Made by a program: the position numbers and the translations under genes. Source: Paramecium tetraurelia (taxonomy: Eukaryota). From it: 64,000 nt of DNA. Position 1 is the stretch's first letter; the number at the start of each line of letters is the position of its first letter. The notes under the pieces were generated by a model that searched no databases, was not told the origin of the DNA, and saw only the letters and a program-made list of their open reading frames with translations. Below, one piece after another: positions 2,634 to 6,730 of the stretch. The stretch spans positions 62,001 through 126,000 of the forward strand of contig CT868241.1 of the NCBI GenBank assembly GCA_000165425.1. Direction: 5' to 3'.

Positions 2634-2810
2634 AATGACTTTATAATTTTATTAATAATTTTTATTCTTTATTTATTATGGATAATAAACTTCATTTAGG
2701 TTGAATCTTAGTGTAACACATTTGAATGTATATTTCCTATTAAAATTATGATGTTGATAGATTGAAATATTTAAAGTTTCGATATAATAGTTAAATGTAA
2801 TATACAAAGA

Positions 2811-2978
2811 TCAAGCAGTTTCTGAAGAGGGGATTTACGGATTTGGTTCATCGGAGAAAAGAACTCTACAAACTGATCTTATCGACTATTCATTAATTCT
2901 GGTTGCATAGTATTATTTCTTAGGAGCATTGGGGCATTTTGGTTATTTAGACTTAGGCGTTAACAAACAATTATTCAT
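2811..2978 (-). CDS. 55-aa microprotein, SIAMESE/SMR-like CDK-inhibitor candidate
   Basis: Intronless MNNCLLTPKSKQPKCPNAPKKQYYATRINEQSIRSVCRVLFSDEPNPQIPSSETA*; TP, CPxAPKK and RxLF motifs; AT-rich flanks. Confidence 0.6.
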
Positions 2979-3059
2979 TTATTTAATTAATAGAAAGAAT
3001 TATAGAAATACAAAATTATAAATTAGAGGCGCATGTATTTACCACCTACTCACTCAATA

Positions 3060-6000
3060 TCATAATTTACGCAAACTCTTTATTTTGTCCTAATATCTTA
3101 GATCATAAAGATTGTTTATTTATTTAAAGAAAGTGGAGTTATAGTTTTGAATGACACTCCCCATATCCTGCAGGAATTGGATTAGCATTGTAATATTTTA
3201 ATATTTGATTCTTTATTCCTATGCTGTGGTTCTAGCGATGACGAATAATAGAGTTTGATTGACATTCTTTTACTCATCTAGATTGCTAGTTTCTATTTTT
3301 GGAGATTGATTTAGTTTAAGAAAACCATTGAATTGATTTTATGAATCCAAAAATACATACTATTGATTATTAGGGGATTGGTCATCTGAAGTAAAATTGG
3401 CTATTTAATATAAATGTGAAGAAATACATTTTTTTATTTTAAATGATTGAATATCATTAGGAATGTTTTTTTCATTCTTAATTTGATAGAGTATACAGGA
3501 ACTATTGATATCAACAGAGGGAAGACTTATTTCAAAGTTCTTAGCTATCGACTTCACACTGCTGCTAAATTATTCAACCGATCGTAGACATTCTTGATTA
3601 CCAGATTCTAAGAGAGTCGACAAATTTTCACATATCCTTATATTACCTTCCGAGAACAGTTCATCTGTGTAATCCCACGGACCATTACCAACTTTGAAAA
3701 AATAGATTTATCCTTCCTCTATGCTAATAGTATACCATTTATTATTGATTTGATGAATAAGTTTAAAAAAAGAATAATCAGAGAGTAATTGATAGGTGAA
3801 GTAATTTTCTATTAAATTAAGTATTTAAAAGTAGTACTTCAGATTTGGGTTTGGGAATTTGAGTATTCCCATTAGAGAGAATATAATTTTACTTTCAACT
3901 TTAAATTTACTTTAAAATTTGAGTTCTTAAATCCTCTCAAACTTTTAACCAAAGGATGTCTTAAAGAATTTATCCTCTTATTATTTGATATAGACTTCAG
4001 ATGCATCCCTTAGTACTGCATTTTGAATTAATAGATGGTGATTGGAAATATTAAAATTCTTCTTTTGGAACATCTCATCCTTTTTGATTTCACTTCTCAG
4101 ATGAATCATATAATCAATTGCCACTTTATTTATATCCAATCCTTCTACTTACTTTTTCTATAGCCACACTTCGGCTGAGATAAAATTCGTTAAGAAATGT
4201 TCACAAACATCAGTTTTTTAAATATTAAATTTGGTAGATTAGAATGGCACAACTCTTTTGCCTGAACCACCATAATATAAGAAGTAGTTTCTTGAACCAG
4301 GTTAAGATATGGTTAATTCAGGTCTCTCCTCATTTACCACGTCGTCATCATAGCCTGGTTGAATATTGTTTAACTTCGTATGTGTTTTACTAATTTTATC
4401 GTTTCTGAATTTACGATGAAACCTGAGTTCATCTGGATTATCGTCATTTAAGATGAGCTTCTTTTTCTTGTCATGCTTTGCTGCATGATTATTATTGTTT
4501 TCTTATTCCTAGTTTAAATCATTTTCGAGTTGGGACAGTTTATCTTCTTCTTATTTCAATGATTAAGATACAACTGTAAAGACTTCCCAAACTAGCCCTC
4601 CAATTAAGGCTAACAGAAAGATTGAGAAGAATTCAAAAGAACCAACAAATAACATGGCTGATAGCATATCATCAGTATCATACGTTAATTCAAAAACAAT
4701 CTAGTTCCATTCAGCTGCTATGAACATTTAGAGCATCATCAAATATGATCCTGCAAAAGTCGAAAAGTCAGCATATTTACAATTCCCCCATTAATACTCA
4801 AAGCTATTTATATCACATTAAGAATTGGCATATGGATTATCTTCATTGCTTTGTATTCTACCATATAAATACATACCCACACAAGAATAAATAAAGAATA
4901 TCATTTGTACTGGCAACATTAATCTTAAAATCAAAGGGACACAAATAAGGATTTTGTATAATAGAGTTCTCACCACATCTAAGAATTGCAAGCCTTCAAA
5001 TAACATATTTAGTATTTTGAGAGATCTGAATGCTCTAAACAATCTGAATACTTTCTATATTTTAGCCAATCTCAACAATCTATTAGCTTTGATTGACTAA
5101 GAGATATTCCCAGAGACTATATTAAATAAAATGTAGTCAAATATGATCTGTAGGATTACCAAAGTTATATCGAAGATATTCCTATTGAATAAGAAATGTG
5201 TTATACCATCCCTCTTAGAAATAGGCTTTTATTCCTATAGCCAAAATTTTGATTGAACATTCCAAAGAATAGAAGACCAAGAATATGGTGTCTAACAAAT
5301 TGAAAATGTCAAGGATAGCTTAATCTTCAATAAAAAAGGCAACTACTATTAACACACAGTTAGTTATTGTTATTATCAACATAGATATTCCGAACATCTA
5401 AAATTGGAATAGTATTGAAATAGTACATGTCCTTCTACAAATGTTAACAAACCTTTAGATAGTAAATAATTTCTGAGGGATTCCCAACAATGTAATGGTT
5501 TAGTTTCTGGCAGAGAGATCACTGAGGCATCCTAGAGTAGATGGAGAAACTTGTGAAATTCATCGAATTGAACCTTATCACTATATTGTAATAATTACAT
5601 TACTTAAAATCCTAATCAATTTAATTGAATAGCTAATTAATTTGTGATTCTGTAATGGTGTTCTTATAGAAATGAAGGATGAAAGTTCTAAATTGATCTC
5701 TTGTCAAAAAGCCTTAATCTTGAAAGTCCAACGATATGAAACTAGCCATCATGGCAGTCTTTTGTTTGATGATGTCGCTGATGGCTATCTCCATCCTATG
5801 CTTTCTGAATCCTTCATATACAACTGCCAATGGGATTGGTGCAAATAGGAAAATAAAAAGCAAGAGATATGTAATAAAGAAAAAACAATAGTAAATTCCT
5901 TAAAGCATAGGTGGAATTAGGATATCTGGATAGAAATCAAGGGTTGCTACCATGAATAACATGGAAAACAATTTAAAGAAGTCTCCATAATCCTATGTCC

Positions 6001-6730
6001 TGAGATCTACATTATCCATGCTTCCAATTAAATTGATTCCAATAAATGAAAATATTGAAATTATAATTAGATACAGAATGATCAGCAAAAATAAATCTTT
6101 GCCTGCTCTAATGATTCCTTTTAAATTTCGTCTTAAATCTTTCGAATACATGGGCATTAACAATGTTCTGCATATTTTGCTGACTCTAAATATAGTTGGT
6201 GCATATTAATGTATTATGAAATCAACCAAACAAAAGTAATATGCAATCAATTTAAACTATTTTTTTGGATTGAAGGTAAATCTGTCTTCCTTCTTTGTTA
6301 ATAGTAATACAATTGTAATACATGAATCTATTCCCATAAAAAGCAGGATTACAAGTTCTAAAACGAATAAATTTGAATGCTCCTCATTATCTTAATCAAA
6401 AAATGAAGGTTCAAAAAATGTTTATAGTTGATATATGATTGACAACAGAAACAAACCATTTAACCAGTGTTAATTGTTCTCAATTTACCACAACAGTTTC
6501 AAGTATGTCTTATTTGCTAAATCAATGTCGTTGCGTATAGCTCGTAAGTGATATGCATCATAAATGTGTCTTTCAGCTTTCTCTATTCTACTTTGAGGCG
6601 ATAGTTTCTTCACTATTTTTTATATATCTTAAGCCAACACATCGTTTTTCTCTAATAGCTTTTGCGAAAACTCAGACATCGCCATCGATTATCGATATAT
6701 CGTGGATTATCTCTTATGGGTCTTTTTCAT
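3060..6730 (-). CDS. Two-pore channel (TPC family, 2x6TM) with EF-hand linker and long C-terminal tail
   Basis: TPC-like N-terminal AERHIYDAYHLRAI and FFEPS; pore 1 MVATLDFYPDILIPPM; S6-I PLAVVYEGFRKHR; EF loop DQDFNDKVQFDE; S4-II RLLRLAKIQKVFRLFRAFRSLK; pore 2 MFIAAEWNQ. Confidence 0.85.

Follow-up and report, generated by a model that had tools for sequence, protein, structure and literature searches.

A 55-residue Paramecium tetraurelia protein with SMR-like motifs as a candidate minimal cyclin-CDK inhibitor

The DNA considered here, a stretch of 64,000 nucleotides from Paramecium tetraurelia (the window), carries at 2811–2978 on the minus strand an intronless ORF which, translated with NCBI table 6, yields a protein of 55 residues followed by TGA; a preliminary description of this DNA had quoted the protein without giving a strand. 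Judged by its sequence, the product is probably a disordered microprotein that would bind, and most likely inhibit, a Paramecium cyclin-CDK, with an RxLF motif for docking, an A-P-K-K stretch as pseudo-substrate, and tuning through phosphorylated Thr 7 and Cks. It may be a pared-down cell-division brake, akin to a family so far regarded as restricted to land plants.

Gene copies, conservation and transcripts

Four TAA/TAG codons within the ORF are decoded as Gln in code 6. The P. tetraurelia genome (72,094,543 bases, 697 contigs) contains four syntenic duplicates, of which this ORF is one; the other three copies are 87, 65 and 64% identical to the window copy, each of the four has the start of a related neighbour gene downstream, and their flanks can be aligned, presumably the pattern to be expected from two rounds of whole-genome duplication. 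In the window the neighbours, both on the minus strand, are the first exon frame of a gene without Pfam match downstream (1584–2633) and, upstream at 3060–6730, a two-pore-channel-like gene with two Ion_trans domains and an EF-hand, which is outside the present finding. Across the 168 bases no indel separates the four copies, the variable columns fall as 20/11/36 on codon positions 1, 2 and 3, and dN/dS amounts to 0.07–0.13 for residues 1–41 in all six pairs of copies; the corresponding range for residues 42–55 is 0.28–1.11, such that the C-terminal tail of 14 residues after the RxLF motif is relaxed or weakly constrained. The 55-residue gene is real, and residues 1–41 are under purifying selection.

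Orthologues occur in P. octaurelia and P. primaurelia, and a 53-residue form of the protein was found as a further homologue. In the alignment of seven homologues 24 of the 55 columns are invariant, among them T7-P8-K9, C15-P16, A18-P19, K21, C37-R38 and L40-F41, and all three motifs discussed below are included; TP, CPxAP[KR]K and CRxLF are found in seven of seven. Motif conservation and dN/dS, two checks which the preliminary description had proposed, both speak for a real gene with conserved motifs. Its statement that annotation had missed the gene does not hold, because NCBI, UniRef and nr already contain the protein as uncharacterized and the paralogues are annotated likewise (GSPATT00015418001, GSPATT00016745001, GSPATT00013461001). 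The grouping of P0009, a protein of 663 residues that by eye is UvrA-like, with the 53-residue homologue P0002 is a clustering artefact.

Upstream of the ORF, a GC-rich word TGCGCC[AT]CT[AT]ATT (3021–3033, minus strand) is a candidate promoter element, retained in three of the four copies (the window copy, L003 and L004) and lost in the twin L002; GCGCC occurs only twice within the 64-kb window. We assume that its core is E2F-like; as GCGCC/GGCGG-type words are uncommon among 41 cyclin, CDK and Cks loci, what speaks for the E2F idea is only the conservation of the word. Possibly, the element is repressive or stage-specific.

Reads from three poly(A) runs are, over the gene, mostly oriented as those over both minus-strand neighbours. 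Position 2931 is the one diagnostic site that separates the window copy from the twin L002, of which T is the allele; reads without T numbered 8 of 30, 1 of 15 and 2 of 11 in the three runs, and the depth over 2803–2864, a stretch with ten differences from the twin, was only ≈ 0.2–3.5. By these two measures the window copy is transcribed weakly in these samples and the twin more strongly. The preliminary description had called for evidence of a transcript, and the window copy does provide one, though most reads at 2931 carry the allele of the twin. This preponderance of the twin, together with a contig of the upstream channel gene that extends to 2971, could suggest that the ORF is fortuitous, part of the 3' end of the transcript of the channel gene, and not a protein gene; such an origin is extremely improbable in view of dN/dS values far under 1, the lack of indels among the four copies, the orthologues in the two other Paramecium species, the copy-specific reads, and a depth of zero from 2989 to 3143 in run X20. 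A search by gene id for expression tables brought to light no cell-cycle or autogamy data in the files read.

Several side observations belong here. L002, the copy supplying most reads, is the one without the GC-rich upstream word. In one run, whose status as RNA is a guess, a contig with the twin's allele reaches a depth of 580, compared with 20 and 9 for the neighbours; the high-depth contig 2 of run X3 continues from 2866 for ≈ 255–268 letters unlike all four loci (the best match of the loose end has 11 mismatches in 30), and the extension may be a chimera or unplaced sequence. Reads in the opposite direction appear over this gene only (window 2803–2957, depth up to ≈ 4, runs X20 and X22), and either antisense RNA or a library artefact could account for them.

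Three motifs and a possible two-point clamp

In the window protein T7-P8-K-S-K is followed by C15-P-N-A-P-K-K21 and then by V36-C-R-V-L-F41, so that TP with basic residues, CPNAPKK and RVLF occur in the translation in the order originally described. The first element, L5-L6-T7-P8-K9-x-K11 (2946–2966, minus strand), is a CDK site and a candidate Cks phospho-docking site or degron; T7, P8, K9 and K11 are invariant in the seven homologues, with Ser replacing L6 in P0010. The second, C15-P-x-A-P-[KR]-K21 (2916–2936, minus strand), resembles SMR motif B and is a candidate pseudo-substrate. The third, [VI]36-C-R-x-L-F41 with an acidic tail (2847–2873, minus strand), is a putative cyclin-docking RxLF according to the homologue alignment and published flank preferences; R, L and F are fixed in the seven homologues, and x is Val, Ile or Met. 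From Thr 7 to the Cys there are 8 residues, from Thr 7 to Ala 18 there are 11, and from Ala 18 to the Arg of RxLF there are 20. AlphaFold2 predicts no fold (mean pLDDT 56), with one low-confidence helix at residues 30–40.

Chance controls support the combination of motifs to differing degrees. Searched at the DNA level, CPxAP[KR]K has four matches in the 72-Mb genome, namely the four copies of the gene, and none in the reversed control, while a loosened version adds one unrelated genome match, with one in the control. When the protein was shuffled 2,000,000 times, the trio of motifs arose once; among 841 short ATG ORFs in 189 kb of the organism's own DNA a single one has it, the ORF itself. 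The word [VI]CRxLF, taken by itself, is at chance level in the genome (36 matches, and 36 in the control), and RxLF therefore carries weight only through conservation and context. A Pfam search of the protein gave no match above cut-off (CBM26 at E 0.14 only), a PDB sequence search a single match at E 0.7, the Atlas no match for the Paramecium protein, and the library of 50% representatives the protein itself only. Sequence searches found relatives among Paramecium-like proteins and none beyond, as would be expected if the protein were small, basic, peculiar to Paramecium and engaged in some unrelated function, its likeness to SMRs and viral ORFs being coincidental. This we regard as unlikely: most of the invariant columns belong to three motifs related to CDKs, which stand in the right order.

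The inhibitor reading can be formulated most simply as a two-point clamp on the cyclin patch and the active site. The stretch [VI]-C-R-x-L-F-x-[DE] would bind to the hydrophobic patch on a cyclin of the A/B type, probably a mitotic B type, and C-P-x-A-P-[KR]-K, 20 residues upstream, would lie in the substrate groove of the kinase with Ala where Ser/Thr would be, such that the complex would bind a substrate that cannot be turned over. The bound CDK could then phosphorylate T7-P, and pT7 would either grip Cks, resulting in tighter, phospho-primed inhibition, or mark the protein for degradation. Natural spacings in CDC6 and p107 are similar to the 20 residues found here, and the T7-to-Ala18 distance of 11 residues is at or just below the Cks minimum. 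In engineered model substrates, as described in the accessible text of PMC7809796, the docking motif was placed 20 residues after the SP site. The sequence A-P-K-K corresponds to the CDK consensus [ST]Px[KR] (bioRxiv 2024.12.03.625240) with Ala at the acceptor position. In the human cyclin screen of the same preprint, going by the portions of it at hand, RxLF ranks among the strongest cores, cyclin B1 favours Val/Ile at P-4, Cys is favoured at P-3, and acidic residues follow (section 11). The Paramecium flanks fit these preferences, with V/I at P-4, Cys at P-3 and acidic residues after the motif, within predicted disorder; P-1 is V/I/M, outside the preferred R/K/Q. According to the preprint, too, binding to human cyclins is seen for < 15% of the strict RxL matches (bioRxiv 2024.12.03.625240).

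The putative partners exist in P. tetraurelia. Seven PSTAIRE CDK loci and Cks genes are present, and Paramecium cyclins keep the docking patch residues: the 30 top-ranked cyclin loci include 20 in which a patch helix of the MR[AST]ILxDW type stands in one open frame. The Kip/KRP domain PF02234 has no match in the genome or in the 55-residue protein. A complex prediction for cyclin B2 residues 70–324 with the microprotein, run without alignments and without a CDK chain, scored 0.00 both times, which counts neither for nor against binding. Genome-wide, Cyclin_N gave 103 matches and Cks 20 exon matches, very large families compared with four copies of the inhibitor candidate.

RVLF may also be viewed as a docking motif for the phosphatase PP1, the consensus of which is RVxF, with the TP as a regulatory site. 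RVLF and RILF do fit [RK][VI]xF in five of the seven homologues; however, the other two have RMLF, the Leu that is free in RVxF is invariant here and the Val varies, and look-alikes outside the ciliates have RRLF or RMLF, which makes a PP1 regulator very unlikely. A minor possibility is that the protein serves cyclin-CDK as a substrate or adaptor and not as a brake, RxLF being docked, T7 phosphorylated, and CPxAP[KR]K bound to some other partner, be it an import receptor, a ligase or a localisation partner. RxL motifs are common to substrates and inhibitors (PMC6170502, in part), T7-P-K-x-K is invariant, and mutation of motif B in Arabidopsis SIM barely affected binding to CDKA;1, motif C mattering little as well, the cyclin-binding motif D being dispensable and motif A essential, as summarised in the available part of the review PMC10904545. 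On the other hand, the protein, with its low mean pLDDT, offers no other domain to regulate, and the Ala/Val-to-Arg spacing stays at 19–22 in four TP-bearing non-ciliate ORFs (two of them pre-selected within a gap of 12–20 codons), whereas the Thr-to-Arg distance varies more. The SIM data also bear on the inhibitor reading: the parts best shared with Paramecium seem to be those that SIM needs least, which counts against it. Along the same lines, CRKRLF of monocot SMRs follows Ala by only 8–15 residues (counted by eye, PMC7389639 file 6), a distance probably too short for a clamp at two points.

Relation to plant SMRs and other inhibitors

The SMR motifs A, B, C (EIERFF) and D are defined in the review PMC10904545, in the part available, and the family corresponds to PF27568 of Pfam according to the Atlas. 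Comparison was made by eye with the 107-row table in supplement file 6 of PMC7389639, the labels of which look unreliable, displaced or incorrect: the rows for AtSMR1 and GmSMR11 are identical, and some rows, among them rice rows, are KRPs. The TP, the most conserved pair of motif A (PMC7389639), is invariant in Paramecium as T7-P8. The rest of motif A is lacking, as there is no IP, and the 8 residues between TP and Cys compare with 11–17 from Thr to Cys in typical SMR rows, which often have IP (≈ 6 residues, then IP/LP) and a motif-C region (PMC7389639 file 6). Motif B, CPxAP[RK]K, is present in the Paramecium protein; in the table CPPAP is found 74 times. EIERFF is absent in seven of seven homologues, and in the table motif C is also absent from an Arabidopsis row ending in RKLF and from several moss rows. 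Motif D, [RK]xL, is represented by the invariant CRxLF, with 20 residues from Ala to Arg vs 8–17 in SMRs. Because two defining features fail, the IP of motif A and motif C, the protein is not filed as an SMR; it appears to share the SMR core, and membership of either SMR or Cip/Kip is not assigned. For the SMR-like label of the preliminary description this means that the likeness stands at the level of motifs (TP, CPxAP[KR]K, RxLF) and fails for motif C, the IP and the spacing, which is shorter; the order TP, CPxAPxK, [RK]xLF, which it had quoted for SMRs, does occur in a subset of them (PMC7389639 file 6). Nothing in the analysis connected the protein with endoreplication of the macronucleus, in which the preliminary description had seen its significance.

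Plant SMRs and the Paramecium protein alike are small and consist of motifs only, with TP, CPxAP[KRM]K and [RK]xLF in this order and a Cys shortly before TP, and several moss rows have TPKSK in motif A, as in Paramecium; unlike the 55-residue protein, SMRs have a longer N-terminus and measure 8–19 kDa. An Arabidopsis row labelled AtSMR12, with TP, 15 residues, CPGAPMK, 13 residues and RKLF, contains neither IP nor motif C. On the assumption of a label shift we take this row to be SMR11, which it probably is. SMR11 co-purified with the B-type cyclin CYCB2;4, according to the consulted part of PMC2950081.

Among the other inhibitors compared were Cip/Kip proteins, KRPs and the yeast proteins Cdc6 and Sic1. 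The flank x-C-R-x-L-F resembles that of Cip/Kip inhibitors. Cip/Kip proteins (p21, p27, p57) and KRPs share cyclin docking through RxLF, R30-N-L-F33 in p27, but in Cip/Kip RxLF stands first, ahead of the CDK-binding domain, which occupies the ATP site (PMC6170502, in part), whereas the Paramecium RxLF is near the C-terminus. Yeast Cdc6, in which pThr-Pro bound by Cks1 together with cyclin docking gives tight inhibition, provides a precedent for phospho-primed inhibition (PMC6620034), and Sic1 works likewise (PMC5412858); both are large multi-site proteins without sequence likeness to the microprotein, and CPxAP[KR]K is not described in the accessible portions of these papers. Tetrahymena Cip1, the one ciliate negative regulator of a cyclin-CDK met in the literature searched, was ruled out as a homologue, as it is a WD40 protein with C-terminal repeats (PMC10990102, available text).

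Look-alikes outside the ciliates and wider meaning

A metagenome scan with the family alignment gave 65 candidates, of which none was confirmed. Motif scans, each restricted to one Cys or Thr codon, revealed among the matches listed at least four short non-ciliate ORFs with the same motif order and a spacing of 19–22, three of them in giant-virus-like DNA. The first, L270/L314, is on an IMG/VR contig of 29% GC, on which a RING gene and DUF6445 lie in the vicinity, and encodes 58 residues, with TP at residue 3, CPGAPRR, KRRLF and a spacing of 20; it fits between two genes, is a called gene on three contigs, and was found by a scan that required neither TP nor a start. In the Atlas, the three clusters closest to it are SMRs (score 0.80, 177 shared language-model features), a score of 0.8 being reached by a third of shuffles, so that this likeness is a lead only; the 58-mer has no match in the P. 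tetraurelia genome. The second, L334:531-842 (minus strand, 27% GC), directly upstream of Hsp70, encodes a tandem of two modules within 103 residues; the first of them, TP..CPDVPKK..RRLFYEEE, has a spacing of 20 and was not selected by the search pattern. L358, which is 61 residues long and flanked by an AAA ATPase and a methyltransferase, has a spacing of 22 and an acidic tail, and is overlapped by a 261-codon frame on the opposite strand. L360/L379, 61 residues from the second Met, ends in IARMLF like the paralogue L004, with a spacing of 19, and the three between-sample differences all lie upstream of the second Met. Gene context suggests a giant-virus origin for L270/L314, L334 and L358, a basis that does not extend to L360/L379.

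The number of in-frame metagenome matches (10 of 66, 5 without stop) equals the chance expectation, and the case for the look-alikes consequently draws on features that had not been selected. Of nine short Met-started ORFs with two motifs, the four with an upstream TP have spacings of 19–22 and the five without TP spacings of 6–23, L358 and L360/L379 having been pre-selected for TP and a gap of 12–20 codons. For coincidence and an unrelated job of the Paramecium protein speak, besides the narrow reach of sequence searches, these chance-level counts and a BLASTP alignment of just 10 residues with the viral 58-mer; against it, a Met 2–8 residues before TP and acidic or Ser-rich residues after RxLF recur without having been selected, the look-alikes fit cleanly between neighbouring genes, and L334 carries a tandem duplicate of the module. 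Since only 10 residues align, homology and convergence are indistinguishable, and the look-alikes may be related to the Paramecium protein by either. Scans with viral patterns yielded mostly chance matches, one convincing ORF plus L043 among 260 loci and 1 of 11 in another; L441 and two phage-database matches were rejected as chance, and L367, L430, L328 and L400 as shadow frames or frames without a start.

If the cyclin-CDK inhibitor reading is followed further, TP-CPx[AV]P[KR][KR]-RxLF might tentatively be seen as an old, portable minimal CDK-inhibitor module of pseudo-substrate and docking motif, occurring as a 55-residue protein in ciliates and, singly or in tandem, in giant viruses stalling host cycles, with SMRs as elaborated descendants, although we hold this to be no better than possible. 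SMRs would then not be plant-specific, and the 'missing' CDK inhibitors of many protists would be short unannotated proteins of this kind. In this context one may note that no CDK inhibitor was found by similarity in diatoms (PMC2872877, in part), and that the available part of PMC10904545 reports SMRs from land plants only, none in Chlamydomonas or Ostreococcus, and SMR and KRP homologues as absent from two green algae. No small CDK inhibitor from a ciliate was met in the literature searched, a search for ciliate or viral SMR-like inhibitors found none within a coverage that takes in few subscription papers, and a text search for the motif gave nothing relevant among the matches listed. Four copies open to RNAi in a tractable ciliate make CDK braking in a protist directly testable, and the 20-residue spacing turns the still unexplained SMR motif B into a mutable hypothesis, with Ala as pseudo-phosphoacceptor. 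The motif pattern can be used for mining other genomes, and the look-alikes from what are probably giant viruses point to a compact way of controlling the cell cycle of the host.

Two observations on viral loci may be added. In the long acidic protein encoded by L043, TP, CPGAPKK and RQLF lie near one another; the protein looks to us like the N-terminus of a Lon-like protein of giant viruses. At the viral loci L092:1495-2457 and L094:1501-2190 there are genes for a CDK-like kinase, which has an altered PSTAIRE helix and at 44% identity is too distant to stand in for Paramecium Cdk1, and for a cyclin (38%).
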